Shown: one piece after another, positions 47,124 through 58,077 of the stretch
Numbering within the stretch: the stretch's first letter is position 1
Layout: each line of letters begins with the position of its first letter
NCBI RefSeq assembly: GCF_014349235.1
Contig: NZ_JACSOH010000004.1
Location: forward strand, 69,307 to 133,306
Direction: 5' to 3'
From: Cytophaga sp. FL35
Lineage (GTDB): Bacteria; Bacteroidota; Bacteroidia; Flavobacteriales; Flavobacteriaceae
DNA length: 64,000 nucleotides
Made by a program: the position numbers and the translations under genes
The notes under the pieces: generated by a model
The model's database searches: none
Seen by the model: only the letters and a program-made list of their open reading frames with translations
What the model was told of the DNA's origin: nothing

Positions 47124-47486
47124 ATGTATAACCAACTAACAGCATATAAAACGGCGTTTTCATTAGCTATGGAGGTCTTTGAAATGACAAAAGAATTTCC
47201 AAAAGAGGAGCGCTATTCCCTAACCGACCAGATTAGGAGAAGTTCCCGTTCCGTTTGTGCCAATATTGCTGAAGGTTACCGAAAAAGGAGGTATGTAAAA
47301 CATTTCGTTGCCAAACTTACAGACGCCGATATGGAAAATACAGAAACCCAAGTTTGGTTAAAGTTTTCATTGGAATGCCAGTACATAAAAGAAGAGACCA
47401 AAGTAGAACTGTACAACAAGACCGTAGAAGTAGGGAAATTGCTTGGTTATATGATCAATAATCCTAAAAAATTCTGCAGCAAATGA
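47124..47486 (+). CDS. four-helix-bundle protein (23S-rRNA-intervening-sequence protein family)
   Basis: 120 aa. AYKTAFSLAMEVFEMTKEFPKEERYSLTDQIRRSSRSVCANIAEGY signature of the TIGR02436-like family. Its stop overlaps the next ATG (ATGA). Confidence 0.8.
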   Translation: MYNQLTAYKTAFSLAMEVFEMTKEFPKEERYSLTDQIRRSSRSVCANIAEGYRKRRYVKHFVAKLTDADMENTETQVWLKFSLECQYIKEETKVELYNKTVEVGKLLGYMINNPKKFCSK

Positions 47487-51165: not shown

Positions 51166-52439
51166 GTAAAATAATTTTTTTATCAATCTTTTTCATTTTT
51201 TACGGACTGTATTCACAATCACAGAATATTGATGGCATATGTTCAGAAGCTGATTTATTCGGGATTCCTGTGGATAATAACCAAATTACATATCATAAAT
51301 ATGCGCCAGTTCTACAACTAAAAAAGAGGTACGCTTCATTTGAAGAAGTTAAAAATCGAACACCCGAAGAATTACTAATTTCTCAAATGTCAGTACAAAA
51401 TAATAAATGGCTAGCTTATAATTTTGAAAATGATATCAAATGGAAAGAAGAGCAATTTAAAAGAATCACATCTCAAGACCCCGAGAAAAATTACATCGAA
51501 TTAATCCGAAAAATAACATACCAAATAAACGGTACAAATTATTCCATTTTAAGGTTGAAAATTTATGATGACAGAAAAAGTAAACCCGCCACTTTAAGCC
51601 TAATGGCAAGTTGTAATAAAGGGAAATGGGCCTTCGTTAAAAATAAGACACGATCTCCGTTAGAATTTTTAATGTCCAACTTAAACCTCCAATATCTTGA
51701 TAAGACCTTAGAAAATGAAGATTCGGATAATTCAAGGTTCAATGAATTAATAAAATCTTCATGGAGGTCGAACCGATTAAGTCCTACGAATATCTATAGA
51801 ATAATCGGTGATAACATGCTGGTTAACGACGGTACTCTTGATAAGGTTTATGAAAGAGCCAACCCTTCCTCTCAACAAACAGAATTTCAAGAATACCATG
51901 AAAATTTTGTATTCACTAAAAACACAATAAACGTAAACTATCTTATCCCCCTAACTGATCAAGAATTCTGTTACTATTTTCCAAATCAACTATCACAATT
52001 TGATTCGAAAAGTATAGCTCAGCTTATTGAATACTTAGAAAACGAAAACATAAACCAAGAGGGTAAAAAACCAACTATTTTCCCTATTCATAAATTTAGA
52101 TACCGACAGGACAATAAAGTGTTTGTAATTGTCAAATATTCCATTAGGCTTGAGAACGAAGAAGCCAAAATAAAAACAGAGGTATTTGATTATAATAGAG
52201 GTAGATACAAAGTACAGAATGAGATAAATCCAGTAAATAGTAATTTAAAATATTTGCTGAATGTTGCTAAATCAGATTTTATAATACAAATATCAAATGG
52301 TGAAAACAATGCAGATTACCCCGAAGTAAATGCTTTAAAACCCGAAACTAAGGACGCCAATGAAATTCTTAACCTGAAGGAACTCATACAAGTAATTACC
52401 AATAATAGTTCAAGTTTGGAAAAGTATTTAAACAATTAA
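51162..52439 (+). CDS. 425-aa secreted protein of unknown function, AT-rich, coupled (ATGA) to the preceding ORF
   Basis: Signal peptide MSKIIFLSIFFIFYGLYSQ. No recognisable domain. Same low-GC block. Confidence 0.45.
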   Translation: MSKIIFLSIFFIFYGLYSQSQNIDGICSEADLFGIPVDNNQITYHKYAPVLQLKKRYASFEEVKNRTPEELLISQMSVQNNKWLAYNFENDIKWKEEQFKRITSQDPEKNYIELIRKITYQINGTNYSILRLKIYDDRKSKPATLSLMASCNKGKWAFVKNKTRSPLEFLMSNLNLQYLDKTLENEDSDNSRFNELIKSSWRSNRLSPTNIYRIIGDNMLVNDGTLDKVYERANPSSQQTEFQEYHENFVFTKNTINVNYLIPLTDQEFCYYFPNQLSQFDSKSIAQLIEYLENENINQEGKKPTIFPIHKFRYRQDNKVFVIVKYSIRLENEEAKIKTEVFDYNRGRYKVQNEINPVNSNLKYLLNVAKSDFIIQISNGENNADYPEVNALKPETKDANEILNLKELIQVITNNSSSLEKYLNN

Positions 52440-52540
52440 CATTTAAATTCTTGTTTCCCCGCTAGCGCGGGCGTCACGCTCGTGCCAGCGGCAGCAAAAA
52501 GTAAAGGCAAGGATAATTATAATGAGCATTAAATAATTAC

Positions 52541-52646
52541 AAAACACCCCTGTAAAAACCGGTTTGGTTTTTACTGTCCCCTGTAGGGGACAATAACACG
52601 TAACAATTCCCCCTTAGAAGGGGGGGCCGCCGCCGCAGGGCGGGGG
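52541..52646. repeat. GC-rich structured repeat, copy A: aaaacacccctg + hairpin 1 (aaaaacc/ggttttt) + hairpin 2 (gtcccc-tgta-ggggac) + hairpin 3 (ccccc-ttagaa-ggggg) + cgcagggcggggg
   Basis: Shares an ordered set of motifs with 53154..53248. 60-70% GC in a roughly 40% GC genome. Confidence 0.55.
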
Positions 52647-52730
52647 ATGTATTCACCCCTGAATGAGGTGACGTTGTGCCAACATCGGGCGAGCAGAAGC
52701 GATGGTGGGGGTGTTAATGATGTAAGTACC

Positions 52731-52765
52731 AAAACACCCTTAAAGTCCCCTTTAGGAGACAATTA
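52731..52765. repeat. partial degenerate third copy of the same repeat (aaaacaccc...gtcccct-ttag-gagac-aat), abutting the DUF559 start
   Basis: Matches the leader + hairpin-2 portion of copies A and B with two substitutions. Confidence 0.35.
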
Positions 52766-52772
52766 AAAAGTA

Positions 52773-53147
52773 ATGAAAAACAGAATAATACCATATAACC
52801 CAAAATTGAAGGAACTGGCAAGGCAGCTACGCCAAAACAGCACCTTGGCAGAGGTATTATTATGGCAAAAAATAAAGAACAGGGCCTATGGGGTGCAGTT
52901 CTATAGGCAAGTGCCCATATTGGAATATATAGTGAACTTTTATTGTCATGAACTCATGTTTGCCATCGAGGTAGACGGTAACAGTCATGATCACAAATAT
53001 GAATATGATGCCGATAGACAGGCCAAACTAGAGGAGCAAGGCGTAAAATTTTTAAGGTTGGGAGACCATGAAGTAAAAAAAGAAATGTTCAGCGTACTGT
53101 TAAAAATTGAAGAAACCATAAATCAATTAAAGAACGTTAGGAATTGA
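52773..53147 (+). CDS. DUF559 (Vsr/restriction-endonuclease-like) domain protein
   Basis: 124 aa. Pattern L...QN.T.AE..LW..I...G.QF.RQ.PI..YIV.FYC.EL..AIEVDG..H ... QG.KFLR matches the DUF559 endonuclease-domain family. Confidence 0.8.
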   Translation: MKNRIIPYNPKLKELARQLRQNSTLAEVLLWQKIKNRAYGVQFYRQVPILEYIVNFYCHELMFAIEVDGNSHDHKYEYDADRQAKLEEQGVKFLRLGDHEVKKEMFSVLLKIEETINQLKNVRN

Positions 53148-53153
53148 TACTAT

Positions 53154-53248
53154 AAAAACACCCCTGTTTTGGCTTTTCCAAAACTGTCCCCTCAAGGGGA
53201 CAATTAATATTCCCCCTTTGAAGGGGGTGCTCGCAGGGCGGGGGGGGG
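53154..53248. repeat. GC-rich structured repeat, copy B: aaaaacacccctg + hairpin 1 (ttttgg/ccaaaa) + hairpin 2 (gtcccc-tcaa-ggggac) + hairpin 3 (ccccc-tttgaa-ggggg) + cgcagggcggggggggg
   Basis: Same element order as copy A. The hairpin-1 stem is fully base-swapped but still pairs. Ends 18 nt before the 1603-aa gene. Confidence 0.55.
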
Positions 53249-53265
53249 TGTAAAAAATAAAATAG

Positions 53266-56200
53266 ATGAAAAACAACTACCCACATATTTTACTTTTCAT
53301 TCTATGCAGCCTGTTTTGCAGTTGCTTCACATTTGCTTATGAAGGCCCCATAAGCCTAGCTGATAGCACTCTTGTAAAAACAACAGATTCTGTTCTTACC
53401 AAAGAAACCCTGCCACAATCTGCCGAGGCCTTTGATCCCATGGCCCATTGGGCAAAAGAAAAAAACAAAAAAGTGACGGTTGCAGACGCTACTACTGCTG
53501 GGTATAGAAGTTTTCCAGAACTCGACTCCTATACCAACAATCTTTACCTGCCTCCGAGCAACGGTTTGGCTGAGTTTACACCAGAATATGTGCAAAACCT
53601 GTTTAAGATAGATAATAATACGCAAGAGCTTTTAAACGCCGGTAAAGAGGTATTTGATATTATCGATAGGGAAAAGCGTTTTATCAATATCATTGGGGGC
53701 CAAGAAATTATAGAACTGCCCGTAGGTATTACGCAACCTATTTCCGAGCACTCCTTTATCTCCTTGGGCATCGTAAGTATGGAATATCATACCAACTACA
53801 CTGTGGTTGATCTGTTCGCCAAGATAAAACTGGCAGAATTAGGAGGTGAAGAACTCTTTTTTGCCGCCAATAACGTTAAAATTTCCCGTGAAGGCGGTAT
53901 TTATGATGAAGCCACTTTAAGTCTTTTAGGCGATTTTCCTATAAGCATGAACGGTGGACAGTGGTTGGTCACCCTCAAAGGGGGAAAGGGAGAACGTGGC
54001 AAAGGAGACGGACAAACCTATGTGACCATCAACTGCGAGGGCAAGGTAAAAGAACTGGCTTTTAACGCAGATGTGCGGGTAGCCAAAACCGTGGCCGTTC
54101 CCTTAAATGAAGACGGTTCGTTAAAATTTCCGGCAAAGACGGAACCGGGCACCGGAGAAAACCCTGTTGGTAACGATAGCTACGTGGGGGCTAATATTAA
54201 ACTGCAAACGGCCACATTAGAGGATATGCTCTTTGAGTTAGACCTACCTTTCTTTGAACTTAAAGCGTTACCTCGTTGGGGCTTTAAAATGGAAAAAACG
54301 GTTCTGGACCTAAGTGACACCAAAAACGCCGAGGGAATGCTATTTCCTGATATTTACCGTACTCAAGGTTTGCTACAGGGAAATGAAAACCTATGGCGGG
54401 GCTTTCACTCCAAGGAAGTGCGGGTCATGTTGCCCCCTGAGTTTAAAAAGAAAGGTTCCGATAAACGTATCTTCGTTGGGGCGCAAAATCTGTTTATAGA
54501 CAATTTTGGGGTCTCAGGAGACTTTTATGCCACCAATGTTTTGGACATTAATGAGGGAGATGCCAGTAAATGGCAGATTTCTGTAGACTCTATTGGCGTT
54601 GATTTAAAGGTAAATAGATTTATTAAGGCTGGCTTTAACGGGGATATTGTACTGCCCATTAGCGATCAAAAATCTACGGGTGGCACATTGGCGTATAAAG
54701 GATTGATTACCGCAGATCAATATTACTCCGTTAACGTTGAGGCTACTGACGATGTAAGTTTTGATGTTTTTAAGGCTCAGGCAAAAATCTACAAGGGATC
54801 TTATGTAAAATTAGAAGTAGAAAACGATCGCTTCTACCCAGAGGCCAATCTTACCGGGCAAATGGCCTTTAGTGCACAACAAAAAAATCAATTAAACGAA
54901 GCTGAAGGCGATGATGGTGTAGAATTGGAATTTGACGGACTTTCGTTTGAGAATTTTAAAATACAGACTCGTGAGCGACCTTATCTTTCCATTGGCCGTG
55001 CCGGTTTCAAAGATGATATTAAACTGCCCAAACTCGCAGGTTTTGAATTGGGCTTCTACGATGTAGAAATTACCTCCGATGAGAACGACAACGCCACCCT
55101 GGCACTTAATTGTTATGTAAACCTAGACGATTCCGGTATTCATGGCGATGTTGGCTTAGAAATCAATGGGGCCTTGGAACAGGGTGATTTATTAAAATGG
55201 CGCTACCAAGGAATAGAGGTTACCGATATTGAGATTGATGTAAAACGAAAGTCCTTTGAGTTTTACGGAAAAGCATCCTTTTTTAAGGACAATCCTATTT
55301 ATGGCAAAGGCTTTTCTGGGGAATTGCAGTTATATGCCGAAGATTTGGGCATAGAAGTAGGGGCCAGAGGTCTTTTTGGGGCCGTAGATGGATACCGTTA
55401 TTGGTTCGTTGATGGTCATGGGCGACCGACAAAAAATAACAATACGAATTTCACCATTTTCGACATTGGCGGCGGTGTTTACCACCACATGCGAAAAGCA
55501 GGCATGGATGAAACTGCTACCTCCCTATCCGGAATCAAGTACCAACCGGACATCAATACTTCACTAGGTTTTAAGGCTTTGGCCGCTTTTGAAATAAAAA
55601 GTGGGGCGGCCTTTACGGCCTTGGCAGGTATAGAAATCGCTTTTAACAGCCAAGCGGCTGGTGGCGGTGTTAGTAGATTAGGCTTCTACGGTGCTGCCAT
55701 GTTAATTCAGGGCAAAAGTGGTGGTGGCAATCCGCAAACCCCATTCGGCACCGTGGATCAAATGCAGCAAACCGTTTCCGCAAAGGAACAGGCATTGGGC
55801 AATTTCCATGAGCTCTCCATTGATAAAGAGGGTCTTAAATATTTTGCCGATGAAGTATTTCCCGAATTGCTGACAGGAGAAGAACTATTTGCAGCGCAAG
55901 TAGCCATCGATTTTGATTTTAGAAATAGGGCCTACTGGGGGCTGCTAGATGTTTATCTAAATGCTGGAGCCATCAGGGGCGAAGGTGAAAAGAACCATTT
56001 AGGTAGATTGGAGTACTACAATTCGCCTGACGATTGGTACATTTATGTTGGTACCCCGACCCACCGTTTTGGACTTGCAGATATACCCATTGGTCCGTTC
56101 TTGGCGAGCATCAACATGTATTTTATGACGGGCACCATATTACCAGACCCCGCCCAGCCGCCACAGAATGTAATAGATATTCTGCATTTATCTGGCAATG

Positions 56201-58077
56201 AGTTAGAATTCGGAAGAAACTTTGACCAAGAACTGGCAAGAGGAACAGGCTATGCCTTTGGGGCCAAATTTCAGCTGGGTATGGGCTTTGACTGGGGCCT
56301 TGTCTATGCCAGTGTAAGTGCAGGGGCCGGTTTCGATTTAATGATGCGTGATTTTGGTGATGCACATTGTAAAGGAAAGGAAGGACCAATAGGAATGGAC
56401 GGGTGGTACTCCACCGGCCAAATGTATGCCTATCTACAGGGTGAAATAGGTGCCAGAATCAAAGTTTTTGGCATTAAAAAAGACATCCCCATTCTATCGG
56501 CTGGCATAGCCGTTTTAGCACAAGCTCAACTTCCAAACCCCTGGTTCATTAAAGGTTACGCCGGTGTTGATATCAAAGTTCTAGGACTGGTTAATATACA
56601 TACCCGATTGAAGGTTATTATAGGGGAAGAGTGCGAAATTATTGGAAAAACAGGTTTGCAAGATGTGGTTATGATTTCTGACATTACCCCAAGGGACGGG
56701 TTGACCGATGTGGATGTTTTCGATGCTGTACAAGTAGCATTTAATGCTCCAATTGGCGAGCCTATCTATATTGAGGAGGAAGGAGGCAAAAAAACCTATA
56801 GAATTAGCTTGGATGAACTTATCGTAAAAAATGCCAATGGAATTATCGAAGGTTCTCAAGAACTCAATGAAAATAGGGATCTACTAACATTCAACTCTTC
56901 AGAAGTTTTACCTCCGGAAGATGAAATCACTGTTATAGCAAAAGTTTCATTTGAAGAGAAATCAGGAGGAAATTGGATAGTTGTCACCGAAAACGGCTCT
57001 CCCGTTATTGAAGAAAAAACGGTAACCTTCACAACCGGTGATGCTCCTAGAAAAATCCCTATTAAAAACATAGAATACATGTACCCTATGGTTGAACAAC
57101 AATATATGTTGCCGAAGGAATTTTCGAAAGGGTTTGTACAATTATATAAAGGACAAGATTATTTATTTGGTAATGGCCTAAGTGATGAACTCTACTTTAT
57201 TGACCAAAACGGAACTAAAACAAAAGCCGATTTCAGTTACAACAAAGCTGATAAACGACTCAATTTCTCCATTCCCAGTTTGGATAAAAAAAGCTCCTAC
57301 ACCTATGCTCTGATTACCTTAAACCCAGGTGATATTGAAGAAAATCAAGTAATGACAGCGGTTGAGTTCAATCAGATTTCTGAAGACCTTGAAATATCAA
57401 ATAACACCATTGTAGGGAACGCTAGCAATGGTGCTTTTATAAGCAGACTAAATTTTAATTTCAACACAAGTGAGCACAATACCTTTAAACAAAAAATACA
57501 ATCGATTAAAGCGAACAAATATGTAAATCAAAGCTTATCCAATGCAGCGCAACTAGCGGTTTACACCAAAGACTATGAGCCTTTTGAGCTTGCTGAAATA
57601 GCACCTTCAAGGTTTAATGGAGGGGTCCCATTAATAATTGGCAATGCTCTCAATAACAATAGGTATTTTAAAAACGAGATTTATCCAACGATATATGAAA
57701 ACTATCCCTTGGACAACCGTTTTGAAGTTCAAAGAGACGCTGCAATATATGGTCTTCCACCAACTAGACCCATCTCCGTTTCGCAAGTTTATGTTACCTA
57801 TGCTCAAAATCAACCTGAAAACAGTTTTCTAAAACAACGTTTTCCTTTTTACTGGGATATTGCTCAAGTATACCGAGAAGATTTCTATCACTTGCAATAT
57901 GAAATTAGTAATTTCTATGATGACCCGGAAAACCCGAAAAGAAAAGATTTTGAATACATAATTTTTTCAAGATTTCCCTATATAAATAACGAGACCTACC
58001 AGGTAGAATTTAAATATCACCTTCCACATTCCAACAACGGCAATAAGGTGATATTTGATTACAAAAATGAATTTTAA
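53266..58077 (+). CDS. 1603-aa secreted protein of unknown function
   Basis: Signal peptide MKNNYPHILLFILCSLFCSCF. Single uninterrupted ORF. Its stop overlaps the next start (TAATG). Confidence 0.6.
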   Translation: MKNNYPHILLFILCSLFCSCFTFAYEGPISLADSTLVKTTDSVLTKETLPQSAEAFDPMAHWAKEKNKKVTVADATTAGYRSFPELDSYTNNLYLPPSNGLAEFTPEYVQNLFKIDNNTQELLNAGKEVFDIIDREKRFINIIGGQEIIELPVGITQPISEHSFISLGIVSMEYHTNYTVVDLFAKIKLAELGGEELFFAANNVKISREGGIYDEATLSLLGDFPISMNGGQWLVTLKGGKGERGKGDGQTYVTINCEGKVKELAFNADVRVAKTVAVPLNEDGSLKFPAKTEPGTGENPVGNDSYVGANIKLQTATLEDMLFELDLPFFELKALPRWGFKMEKTVLDLSDTKNAEGMLFPDIYRTQGLLQGNENLWRGFHSKEVRVMLPPEFKKKGSDKRIFVGAQNLFIDNFGVSGDFYATNVLDINEGDASKWQISVDSIGVDLKVNRFIKAGFNGDIVLPISDQKSTGGTLAYKGLITADQYYSVNVEATDDVSFDVFKAQAKIYKGSYVKLEVENDRFYPEANLTGQMAFSAQQKNQLNEAEGDDGVELEFDGLSFENFKIQTRERPYLSIGRAGFKDDIKLPKLAGFELGFYDVEITSDENDNATLALNCYVNLDDSGIHGDVGLEINGALEQGDLLKWRYQGIEVTDIEIDVKRKSFEFYGKASFFKDNPIYGKGFSGELQLYAEDLGIEVGARGLFGAVDGYRYWFVDGHGRPTKNNNTNFTIFDIGGGVYHHMRKAGMDETATSLSGIKYQPDINTSLGFKALAAFEIKSGAAFTALAGIEIAFNSQAAGGGVSRLGFYGAAMLIQGKSGGGNPQTPFGTVDQMQQTVSAKEQALGNFHELSIDKEGLKYFADEVFPELLTGEELFAAQVAIDFDFRNRAYWGLLDVYLNAGAIRGEGEKNHLGRLEYYNSPDDWYIYVGTPTHRFGLADIPIGPFLASINMYFMTGTILPDPAQPPQNVIDILHLSGNELEFGRNFDQELARGTGYAFGAKFQLGMGFDWGLVYASVSAGAGFDLMMRDFGDAHCKGKEGPIGMDGWYSTGQMYAYLQGEIGARIKVFGIKKDIPILSAGIAVLAQAQLPNPWFIKGYAGVDIKVLGLVNIHTRLKVIIGEECEIIGKTGLQDVVMISDITPRDGLTDVDVFDAVQVAFNAPIGEPIYIEEEGGKKTYRISLDELIVKNANGIIEGSQELNENRDLLTFNSSEVLPPEDEITVIAKVSFEEKSGGNWIVVTENGSPVIEEKTVTFTTGDAPRKIPIKNIEYMYPMVEQQYMLPKEFSKGFVQLYKGQDYLFGNGLSDELYFIDQNGTKTKADFSYNKADKRLNFSIPSLDKKSSYTYALITLNPGDIEENQVMTAVEFNQISEDLEISNNTIVGNASNGAFISRLNFNFNTSEHNTFKQKIQSIKANKYVNQSLSNAAQLAVYTKDYEPFELAEIAPSRFNGGVPLIIGNALNNNRYFKNEIYPTIYENYPLDNRFEVQRDAAIYGLPPTRPISVSQVYVTYAQNQPENSFLKQRFPFYWDIAQVYREDFYHLQYEISNFYDDPENPKRKDFEYIIFSRFPYINNETYQVEFKYHLPHSNNGNKVIFDYKNEF

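Follow-up and report, generated by a model that had tools for sequence, protein, structure and literature searches.

The BoxC/PIT/TMECO repeats have been known in Escherichia coli since the 1990s and, to our knowledge, no function, origin or mobilizing enzyme has been found for them. The small nucleases of DUF559, which form a very large family, likewise have no role that we know of. The TMECO pattern of these repeats is CCCTCNCCC N3-6 GGGNGAGGG N3 GGGNGAGGG (pattern and Table 1 of Holder et al. 2015, PMC4666352, where the earlier BoxC/PIT work by Bachellier/Hofnung and Hoyne/Maher is cited), and that 2015 survey never saw a mobility-related gene adjoining them; the published work on BoxC reports no associated gene. 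In the window, by which we mean the whole 64-kb stretch of DNA analyzed here, Bacteroidota versions of a DUF559 gene and of a BoxC-type repeat lie side by side, and in the open-access literature we found no description of this repeat family or of a link between DUF559 and BoxC.

The two repeat families share the same block order (C block, 3-6-nt loop, G block, 3-nt loop that is often TTA, G block) and frequent inverted pairing around a short core, such that an inverted pair of the E. coli motifs has the architecture of one Bacteroidota unit. The two families part in the sequence of their blocks: those of the window family are CCCC(C)/GGGG(G) runs of 4-6 nt with ACA...TGT ends, whereas BoxC has 9-nt CCCTCNCCC/GGGNGAGGG blocks, and the C4-5/G4-5 runs of the window depart from the TMECO pattern in being free of TC/GA interruptions. 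Both families are GC-rich, intergenic (with the exception of two in-frame copies described below), without strand bias and present in tens of copies per genome; the loci of both are prone to rearrangement, and both occur directly 3' of a DUF559 gene with the stop codon inside the element. The Bacteroidota units are set apart by additional hairpins inserted at each of the two 3-nt loops and by their host phylum. PIT/BoxC sequences are further characterized by an intrastrand triplex in vitro, for which CCCCCTTTGAAGGGGGTTAGGGGGATGT, with its short blocks, would be a candidate in the Bacteroidota family.

Two full units and one half unit, all on the + strand, surround the DUF559 gene of the window (52773-53147, + strand), where an earlier note on this DNA had placed two full copies and a partial one. 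The sites of these elements held, whereas their ends had to be redrawn, as the true unit runs from ACACCCCT to GGGGGATGT (unit A, 52544-52650; unit B, 53158-53251). What the note had called a leader is the 5' half of a closing stem, and its tail comprises a small hairpin together with the 3' half of that stem; the GC content, which it had put at 60-70%, measures 55-57% for the units against 39.5% for the window. The motif GTCCCC-N4-GGGGAC is found at 52576, 52745 (with one mismatch) and 53186, and CCCCC-TTNGAA-GGGGG at 52609 and 53212, with a chance expectation of 0.11 for the latter. A covariance model built from unrelated genomes had no match in the 64 kb beyond these three sites, with E-values of 1e-11 for unit B, 6e-9 for unit A and 6e-4 for half unit C.

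Unit A, delimited with the family consensus, has a predicted fold of -50.4 kcal/mol (z = -3.3 versus shuffles) and consists of P1a, ACACCCCT (52544-52551), a variable hairpin insert (the 'hairpin 1' of the note, 52552-52574), the left hairpin GTCCCC-TGTA-GGGGAC (52576-52591), a core (52592-52608), the right hairpin CCCCC-TTAGAA-GGGGG (52609-52624), a small hairpin CCGCC-GCAG-GGCGG (52630-52643) and P1b, GGGGGATGT (52642-52650). Unit B (-49.3 kcal/mol, z = -4.0) repeats this order with P1a (53158-53165), a variable hairpin insert (53166-53184), the left hairpin GTCCCC-TCAA-GGGGAC (53186-53201), core (53202-53211), the right hairpin CCCCC-TTTGAA-GGGGG (53212-53227), a small hairpin (53230-53242) and P1b, GGGGGTGT (53244-53251), and a nearly identical counterpart, insert included, is present in Euzebyella. 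Half unit C (52734-52760) retains the left end only, ACACCCTT-aaa-GTCCCC-TTTA-GGAGAC, with one stem mismatch, and is followed by AATTAAAAAGTA and then the DUF559 ATG. Unit B starts 10 nt past the DUF559 stop codon and, as it ends 14 nt ahead of the ATG of a 1603-aa gene, must lie within the transcript leader of that gene. The Bacteroidetes -7 promoter motif (TAnnTTTG) has zero occurrences in 52300-53300, sigma-70 and terminator scans of the region remained at chance level, and the cassette as a whole had no BLAST match in plasmid and phage collections. The local effect in the window is mainly structural, with ~100-nt palindromes of about -50 kcal/mol separating a 425-aa gene, DUF559 and the 1603-aa gene.

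A genome scan and extraction recovered relatives in many Bacteroidota (~55 loci), and an alignment and model of the compact unit yielded 217 matches, 94 of them non-overlapping. The window copies belong to a family of DNA repeats, GC-rich and built of nested palindromes, that extends across the Bacteroidota. The unit is an imperfect inverted repeat, ACACCCCT-N3-GTCCCC-TCAA-GGGGAC ... CCCCC-TTTGAA-GGGGG-TTA-GGGGGATGT, in which a C block, ~3 nt and the left hairpin are followed by a variable core, and the right hairpin, ~3 nt (often TTA) and a G block complete the right end, with ACACCCCT and GGGGGATGT pairing as the closing stem. The left end is 67% identical to the reverse complement of the right end (50% in shuffles), and the inverted repeat is nearly perfect in two loci (L095 and L105). 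Small hairpins enlarge the 3-nt loops of the window copies, whose blocks are 4-6 nt in length. Apparent 'circular permutations', in which the closing stem followed the right hairpin as a local hairpin and preceded the left one, were considered as a ribozyme-like three-way junction and rejected, being abutting units in inverted orientation.

The earlier note had read the differences between the copies as covariation implying selection on structure. Every pair of hairpin 1 does differ between the two copies, but this hairpin is an optional insert, missing from most members of the family and highly diverse, with many unrelated versions, where it is present. The difference represents module replacement rather than stepwise compensatory change. 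The core C4/G4 stems are almost invariant in sequence across the family, with nearly no true compensatory change, and most alignment cells in which both sides of a stem appear changed stem from reverse-strand matches of the palindromic element. The hairpin potential is a real property of the family, but since it is equally expected for DNA palindromes it is no pointer to RNA.

What the units do is typical of DNA-level repeats such as REPs and MITEs, which supports one of the candidate explanations of the earlier note. They occur in either orientation relative to the flanking genes, in tandem, convergent and divergent intergenic regions alike, including regions of only 77-140 nt that hold single units; they are solitary or arrayed, the arrays having ORF-less spacers of ~30-40 nt, and are mosaic with nested inserts. 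In-frame units are found inside an orthologue of the 1603-aa gene (L051, ITPLKSPQGDNSPFEGG...) and inside a type I HsdR gene (L069, TPLWSPQGDN...SPFEGG), with the reading frame of the unit being identical in these two unrelated genes. With Rickettsia palindromic elements (RPEs) and bacterial MITEs such as Correia and Nezha the units share a length of ~70-150 bp, terminal inverted repeats, a variable core, a non-coding and multi-copy nature and the tolerance of in-frame copies in protein-coding genes; they differ in that the ends themselves hold hairpins, and in that neither a cognate IS transposase nor a target-site duplication was identified, an all-against-all blastn of the fetched loci having returned no such duplication or clean filled-versus-empty pair. 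We know of no sequence similarity of the units to named RPE/MITE families. A bulk MITE census of Bacteroidota has been published (PMC11602168). With the system of REP/BIME plus RAYT, the REP-associated tyrosine transposase ('REPtron'), they share short GC-rich palindromes in intergenic mosaic clusters, a small nuclease gene flanked by repeat copies and a repeat sequence that varies with the enzyme clade. Unlike in REP/RAYT, the nuclease is here a Vsr-like PD-(D/E)XK protein (DUF559) and not a Y1/HUH (IS200/IS605-like) transposase, and the units are larger, nested palindromes; membership in REP/RAYT was rejected, as no Y1 transposase gene recurs beside units in the 8-kb loci. At the place of the conserved GTAG tetranucleotide of REP elements, the linker ahead of the left hairpin is variable, reading GTAG, ATAG, AAAG, GTGG or AAGG.

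Unbiased clustering of the 185 ORFs situated within 1.5 kb of units in the 8-kb loci showed DUF559 to be the sole protein family recurring beside units outside of synteny, and among the same ORFs no transposase, RAYT, integrase or other mobility gene recurred; the suggestion of the earlier note that the repeat is the target or boundary of the DUF559 module gains support, read as a boundary or a partner of it. Nine loci selected by the element carry DUF559. Conversely, in ~11 of 13 distinct loci selected by DUF559 a unit lies within ~100-200 nt of the gene, and in 10 of 12 cases its stop codon is 0-26 nt from the next C block; a metagenome scan with the DUF559 protein yielded no more than nine loci, useful though few. 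The usual layout has a unit or half unit just 5' of the ATG and the stop codon inside, or a few nucleotides before, the next C block. This adjacency extends over Flavobacteriaceae, Cyclobacteriaceae and Hymenobacteraceae, and a half unit directly ahead of the DUF559 ATG, as in the window, recurs in two other loci (L093 and L094). Where the DUF559 protein has only 50-54% identity (L087-L089) the flanking repeat, GACCCCACCCCT-ga-CCCCTCCCC...GGGGAGGGG-tc-AGGGGTGGGGTC, differs in sequence but is alike in design, and its blocks CCCCTCCCC/GGGGAGGGG are intermediate between the window family and the BoxC pattern.

The 124-aa window protein is a clear DUF559 member (Pfam PF04480, E = 3e-28, 98.2 bits versus a cut-off of 20.6) related to PDB 3hrl (E = 1.5e-11). 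In an alignment of homologues it has N55 (IVNF) where 29 of 29 have the Asp of an (I/V)VDF motif, the likely catalytic residue by analogy with the Vsr family, and Y44 where the other 29 have His. Given the D55N and H44Y replacements this copy is probably inactive or decayed, and a degenerate half unit precedes it; an intact flavobacterial DUF559 protein at 94% identity retains Asp55. Compared with Vsr/DUF559/I-Bth0305I-type endonucleases, the window gene has no evident mismatch-repair context (no dcm partner was seen) and lies in neither an intron nor an intein.

A parallel arrangement is seen in Enterobacteriaceae: in E. coli, and at a second locus in Enterobacter and Phytobacter, the 3' end of the DUF559 ORF falls within a BoxC pair. 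This pair is intact and inverted for an E. coli variant and for the homologues of the other two genera. TMECO no. 9 lies ~165 nt from ycjD, the final codons of which, CCC TCT CCC TGA, form a degenerate C block. Of 5426 complete E. coli genomes, 3378 carry the gene. BoxC-like places number 18 at the median where the ycjD locus exists and 5.5 where it does not (~3x, p = 1e-9), a difference confounded by phylogroup. O157:H7-type genomes have no ycjD locus yet keep 12 BoxC-like copies, and 22 of the 23 BoxC copies of K-12 have no DUF559 gene nearby. Salmonella is missing from the best 120 YcjD matches, and TMECO is absent from Salmonella (PMC4666352).

In light of these observations, the best explanation, and a reasonably probable one, is in our view that the units are a DNA repeat similar to REPs and MITEs, accompanied by a Vsr-like nuclease that is either its cognate enzyme or its parasite. 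DUF559 with an adjacent unit would constitute the gene-carrying form, of which solo units would be gene-less derivatives; the nuclease may recognize and nick the C-block/hairpin end, either as a duplex or as a folded single strand, and subsequent repair or copying could spread units and gene, rendering such loci unstable. This mechanism is an inference, as we know of no nuclease activity or cleavage site for any DUF559 protein. For most units, moreover, including the many solo units of Ekhidna at all of its loci, no DUF559 gene is close by, so that the enzyme would have to act in trans. A broader proposal, which we advance more tentatively and with rather less conviction, is that BoxC/PIT-type repeats have their cognate enzymes in the DUF559/YcjD-type nucleases, and this in two phyla or more (Bacteroidota and the Enterobacteriaceae). 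If this coupling is functional, E. coli ycjD would gain a testable function and the instability reported at BoxC/TMECO loci would be explained. The nuclease would then create or process the repeats, giving the repeat family an origin and DUF559 a function, and a second, RAYT-independent 'repeat plus nuclease' system would stand beside REP/RAYT.

We consider it unlikely, though deserving of serious attention, that DUF559 is instead a free-standing homing-type endonuclease gene that parasitizes the repeats, with the unit end as its target, while the units spread otherwise, via an unlinked transposase, replication slippage or recombination. Homing endonucleases of the Vsr-like/DUF559 fold do exist, I-Bth0305I being grouped with Vsr/DUF559 (PMC3424549). 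The DUF559 gene is always between units and never within one, which leaves the boundaries of any gene-carrying mobile unit undefined; this, the abundance of units without a nearby gene, the presence of an identical DUF559 protein in several contexts of one population and the replacement of eefRABCD by ycjD at a single E. coli site (PMC12817139) all accord with such a parasite. However, by itself homing explains neither the higher BoxC-like copy number of ycjD-positive E. coli nor, unless the enzyme simply tracks its target, the shift of repeat sequence with DUF559 clade, and no other mobility gene recurs beside the units in the 8-kb loci.

The earlier note had also entertained a structured non-coding RNA or 5'-UTR, that is, a multi-hairpin cis-regulatory or intercistronic RNA controlling DUF559 or the 1603-aa gene. 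The very stable predicted folds, with a closing stem and 3-4 hairpins, the co-orientation of all window copies with the genes, the position of unit B in a transcript leader and the conservation, across three genera, of a half unit immediately 5' of the DUF559 ATG are consistent with this reading. Nevertheless, we judge it very unlikely: units lie in both orientations, divergent promoter regions included, in tandem arrays without genes and in frame within ORFs; the core stems are invariant and hairpin 1 is optional; and no Rfam family matched in the 64 kb at gathering thresholds (the best permissive match, CRISPR-DR57, reached 17.7 bits versus a threshold of 39). Earlier work on PIT/BoxC had moreover revealed neither promoter nor terminator activity (cited in PMC4666352). 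Finally, the possibility that the units are attC-like sites, with DUF559 a cassette in an integrase-less integron-like array (CALIN), is largely refuted and very improbable: while the units, 60-140 nt in length, are imperfectly palindromic around a variable center and flank small ORFs, many ends read ...AACACCCC and GGGGRTGTT, and a toxin-antitoxin pair (HTH_17 + PIN) lies alongside in one DUF559 context, the defining AAC/GTT triplets vary (5' ends read TACA about as often as AACA, and 3' ends read TGTT, TGTC or TGTA), the closely spaced arrays hold no ORF, single units sit in short intergenic regions and inside ORFs, and no integrase family recurs beside units in the 8-kb loci.

Turning from the alternatives to the repeats as such, the units have a bearing on annotation in that they break assemblies, extend or interrupt ORFs and may pass for structured RNAs. 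Two further modules accompany unit A. An extension of this unit to 52717 was dropped, as comparison with other genomes sets its right end at 52650; the segment 52654-52717 (+ strand) is a right-end-type fragment (CACCCCTG ... GCGATGGTGGGGGTGTTAATG), the 3' end of which matches the extended right ends of Ekhidna units (L078, 'gcaaaagcgatggaaGGGGGATGTtaatg'; L004). Upstream of unit A lies a second GC-rich palindromic module (TTCCCCGCTAGCGCGGGCGTCACGCTCGTGCCAGCGG, 52455-52495, 76% GC), which is also found beside units in L051 (~4280-4320) and L092 (~3395-3430).

The palindromic repeats on either side of the DUF559 gene in the window belong to a DNA repeat family that spans the phylum and has the architecture of a BoxC pair; in both Bacteroidota and Enterobacteriaceae, DUF559 genes are physically coupled to repeats of this kind. 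The intergenic stretch around the gene (52440-53265) contains two full units, A (52544-52650) and B (53158-53251), and a half unit comprising a C block and the left hairpin (52734-52760), which is followed by AATTAAAAAGTA-ATG. The motifs named in the earlier note were recovered, GTCCCC-N4-GGGGAC at 52576, 52745 (with one mismatch) and 53186, and CCCCC-TTNGAA-GGGGG at 52609 and 53212 against a chance expectation of 0.11. In the predicted folds of both full units, ACACCCCT, first regarded as a leader, pairs with GGGGGATGT at the end of the "tail" to form a closing stem surrounding three to four hairpins, and the limits of the units were placed accordingly. The predicted folding energies are -50.4 (A) and -49.3 (B) kcal/mol (z = -3.3 and -4.0), and the GC content of the units is 55-57%, rather than the 60-70% originally stated, against 39.5% for the window. 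Comparison with Rfam, as that note had proposed, returned no match for the units. Their local effect is probably strong secondary structure between the 425-aa gene, the DUF559 gene and the 1603-aa gene, and little else.

One genome per species was scanned for the exact pattern, yielding 81 stretches, approximately 55 of them from Bacteroidota, including Ekhidna, Flagellimonas, Zobellia, Pseudozobellia, Euzebyella, Zunongwangia, Marixanthomonas, Pontibacter and Roseivirga, as well as Cyclobacteriaceae; the remainder are chance matches in GC-rich genomes. The compact consensus takes the form ACACCCCT-N3-GTCCCC-TCAA-GGGGAC-(3 to 30 nt)-CCCCC-TTTGAA-GGGGG-N2-5-GGGGG(A)TGT. A covariance model made from 20 compact units matched A, B and the half unit, and no other site in the window; in 56 Bacteroidota loci it gave 217 matches (94 non-overlapping), among them tandem arrays with a period of ~100 nt. 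The neighborhoods examined were 8-kb loci (L-numbers) from other genomes or metagenomes. Compared with the reverse-complemented right end, the left end shows 67% identity (shuffles, 50%), and in some members (L095, L105) the two are nearly identical in inverted orientation; the units are thus imperfect inverted repeats with a hairpin in each end.

Within 1.5 kb of the units, DUF559 was the only ORF family recurring in non-syntenic loci, being present in nine loci chosen by the repeat element. Loci chosen by the DUF559 protein alone, from Pseudozobellia thermophila, Maribacter polysiphoniae, Galbibacter, Tamlana, two uncultured flavobacterial lineages and metagenomic contigs, almost always carry units within ~100-200 nt, usually on both sides. 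This adjacency under either choice supports the suggestion that the repeats are a boundary of the DUF559 module. The same half unit lies immediately 5' of the DUF559 ATG in the window, M. polysiphoniae (L093) and Galbibacter (L094), and in 10 of 12 cases the next unit's C block is 0-26 nt from the DUF559 stop codon, with several of the proteins ending in unit-encoded residues (...HP or ...SPFEGG). The DUF559 genes of L087-L089 (50-54% identical) are flanked by another, similarly designed repeat, GACCCCACCCCT-ga-CCCCTCCCC-tacgat-GGGAGGGG ... CCCCTCCC-atcgta-GGGGAGGGG-tc-AGGGGTGGGGTC; as both gene and repeat differ in these loci, the repeat sequence changes along with the enzyme clade.

This second repeat resembles the BoxC (PIT, TMECO) motif, CCCTCNCCC-N3-6-GGGNGAGGG-N3-GGGNGAGGG (PMC4666352). 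At its right end, the window unit shows the matching order of C block, loop, G block, 3-nt loop and G block, and the whole unit corresponds to an inverted BoxC pair. TMECO has 23 copies in E. coli K-12, intergenic, on both strands and including five inverted pairs; its second loop is often TTA, it is linked to local instability, it has no associated mobility gene and it is reported absent from Salmonella (PMC4666352). The E. coli gene ycjD itself belongs to DUF559, its product sharing 37% identity with the DUF559 protein of the window. A degenerate C block is formed by the final ycjD codons (CCC TCT CCC TGA), and TMECO no. 9 lies ~165 nt beyond; with 23 copies in 4.6 Mb, we estimate the chance of a TMECO this near at ~0.002. 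In another E. coli lineage the ycjD ORF crosses the first member of an intact inverted BoxC pair. The homolog in Enterobacter asburiae, E. cancerogenus-type Enterobacter and Phytobacter is at a different locus (radical-SAM HemN-like gene/DUF2884/yggL) and likewise ends inside the first member of such a pair, resulting in ...PSPRPSP C-termini. Of 5426 complete E. coli genomes, 3378 carry ycjD; in phylogroups A, B1 and C it sits at the sapF-fabI site, replacing the eefRABCD operon (2026 study, PMC12817139). In an evenly spaced E. coli sample, BoxC-like places number 12-26 with a copy at the ycjD locus (median 18, n = 37) and 1-15 without (median 5.5, n = 22), a difference (p = 1e-9) that is phylogenetically uncorrected and confounded by phylogroup. 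No Salmonella protein occurs among the best 120 YcjD matches, and the searched open-access literature yielded no paper linking ycjD or DUF559 with BoxC.

We posit that DUF559 may act on the unit ends, perhaps nicking at the C block/hairpin. It could be the enzyme by which the repeats spread or persist, comparable to REP/RAYT systems, or a homing-type gene that takes the repeats as targets. Gene-less units far outnumber DUF559 genes, and, with palindromes throughout, the limits of any mobile segment carrying the gene can be drawn in more than one way. The window gene (52773-53147) encodes a 124-aa Vsr-like PD-(D/E)XK protein (Pfam E = 3e-28), with 3hrl as the nearest solved structure (E = 1.5e-11). 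It has N55 and Y44 versus the D and H of 29/29 other aligned homologs, and a 94%-identical relative keeps H44 and D55. These substitutions, along with a stem mismatch in the half unit upstream, suggest that this copy is likely to be decaying or inactive.

The units behave as REP/MITE/RPE-type DNA repeats, a REP/MITE-like element having been raised at the outset, and not as an RNA gene, based on their occurrence in both orientations relative to neighboring genes, in all intergenic types, in frame within genes, at gene ends and at assembly breaks. In tandem gene pairs, ~23 intergenic regions have the same orientation (many being arrays around DUF559) and 10 the opposite; units are also present in convergent regions and in divergent ones, some of these as short as 95-150 nt. 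In Pseudozobellia sp. WGM2 a unit (L051 3414-3488, -) lies inside the 1232+ aa ortholog of the 1603-aa protein, ~200 nt past an N-terminus identical to that in the window, and is translated in frame as ITPLKSPQGDNSPFEGGARRAGDVF. Another in Pontibacter (L069 6169-6251, -) falls in the HsdR subunit of a type I restriction system, in the linker that separates domain 3 from the C-terminal domain, and reads TPLWSPQGDN...SPFEGG; the two share a reading frame (TPL.SPQGDN...SPFEGG), analogous to the Rickettsia palindromic elements. Units also supply the last codons of genes in L013 and L077. A structured ncRNA or 5'-UTR, also entertained in the earlier note, is unlikely in view of the orientations, divergent regions, in-frame copies and lack of an Rfam match. 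Short-read contigs (Logan) break off inside unit B of the source genome, and other Logan contigs stop 5-100 nt past the enterobacterial DUF559 stop; the repeats routinely break assemblies, and copy numbers in draft genomes are therefore underestimates.

The covariation first seen in hairpin 1 calls for a different explanation. This hairpin is missing from most family members and, where found, sits at the junction of the C block and left hairpin in many unrelated forms (GAAAAGTAGTC-taa-GACTACTTTTC; GAAAAGCACCTC-aa-GAGGTGCTTTTC; GTTTTGG-ctttg-CCAAAAC), with Euzebyella (L061) carrying the form of unit B almost unchanged. Hence, the difference between A and B is real, but reflects replacement of an optional palindromic module rather than compensatory change in one helix. 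The C4/G4 pairs of the core helices do not vary in >125 of 146 rows; cells with both sides changed are mostly an artifact of reverse-strand matching, with left and right hairpins swapped, and the loop-closing pair (C:G versus T:A) is the only real two-state change. Such conservation would suit protein or DNA-level recognition better than RNA shape alone.

The product of the 1603-aa gene (53266-58077) has no Pfam domain, and its Pseudozobellia ortholog (L051) gives a sub-threshold match to DUF6603 (19.1 bits versus a cut-off of 27). A Galbibacter homolog (L094) likewise has DUF559 and a unit directly upstream; the DUF559 proteins are 72% identical, though the Galbibacter homolog is only 30% identical to the 1603-aa protein, and the arrangement is either old or a preferred site. 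A 120-aa gene for a 23S_rRNA_IVP/bAvd-like four-helix bundle (47124-47486, +) overlaps the start (47483) of the 1078-aa gene directly 3' of it, which encodes an fn3 protein; the covariance model found no units flanking the IVP gene. In M. polysiphoniae DUF559 and units hold the equivalent slot, upstream of a 71%-identical homolog of the fn3 protein, and thus different small "selfish-looking" genes fill intergenic slots of one conserved gene cluster.

In an uncultured Algibacter-like population (L095, L096, L101) one identical DUF559 protein occurs in three arrangements (esterase-DUF559-methyltransferase; PIN/HTH_17-DUF559-methyltransferase; DUF559-142aa-HTH_17-PIN), with a ~175 bp repeat on both sides of the cassette, which suggests that recombination between cassettes gains or loses the toxin-antitoxin module. 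In L105-L107 (about 1880-2600) a Sua5/YrdC-type gene 3' of DUF559 and a left half unit is called at 144-181 aa only, and the half unit abuts sequence resembling the middle of the YrdC domain; this is possibly an insertion into, or truncation of, that gene. A second GC-rich palindromic module, CCCCGCTRGCGYGRGCGTCACGCYCGTRCC (76% GC, window 52455-52495), also lies beside units in L051 (about 4280-4320) and L092 (about 3395-3430), three genera in all, and is a separate repeat family traveling with the main one. Finally, mini-insertions of 24-50 nt (TACTTCG...GCTCAGCACACCG) occur in either orientation between the CC and CCTYRAGG of a left or right hairpin (L020 about 2140-2200; L046 about 230-480; L080 about 4480-4540 and 5080-5200; arrays of L063 and L035); this nesting of repeats in repeats suggests that the hairpin is itself an insertion target.
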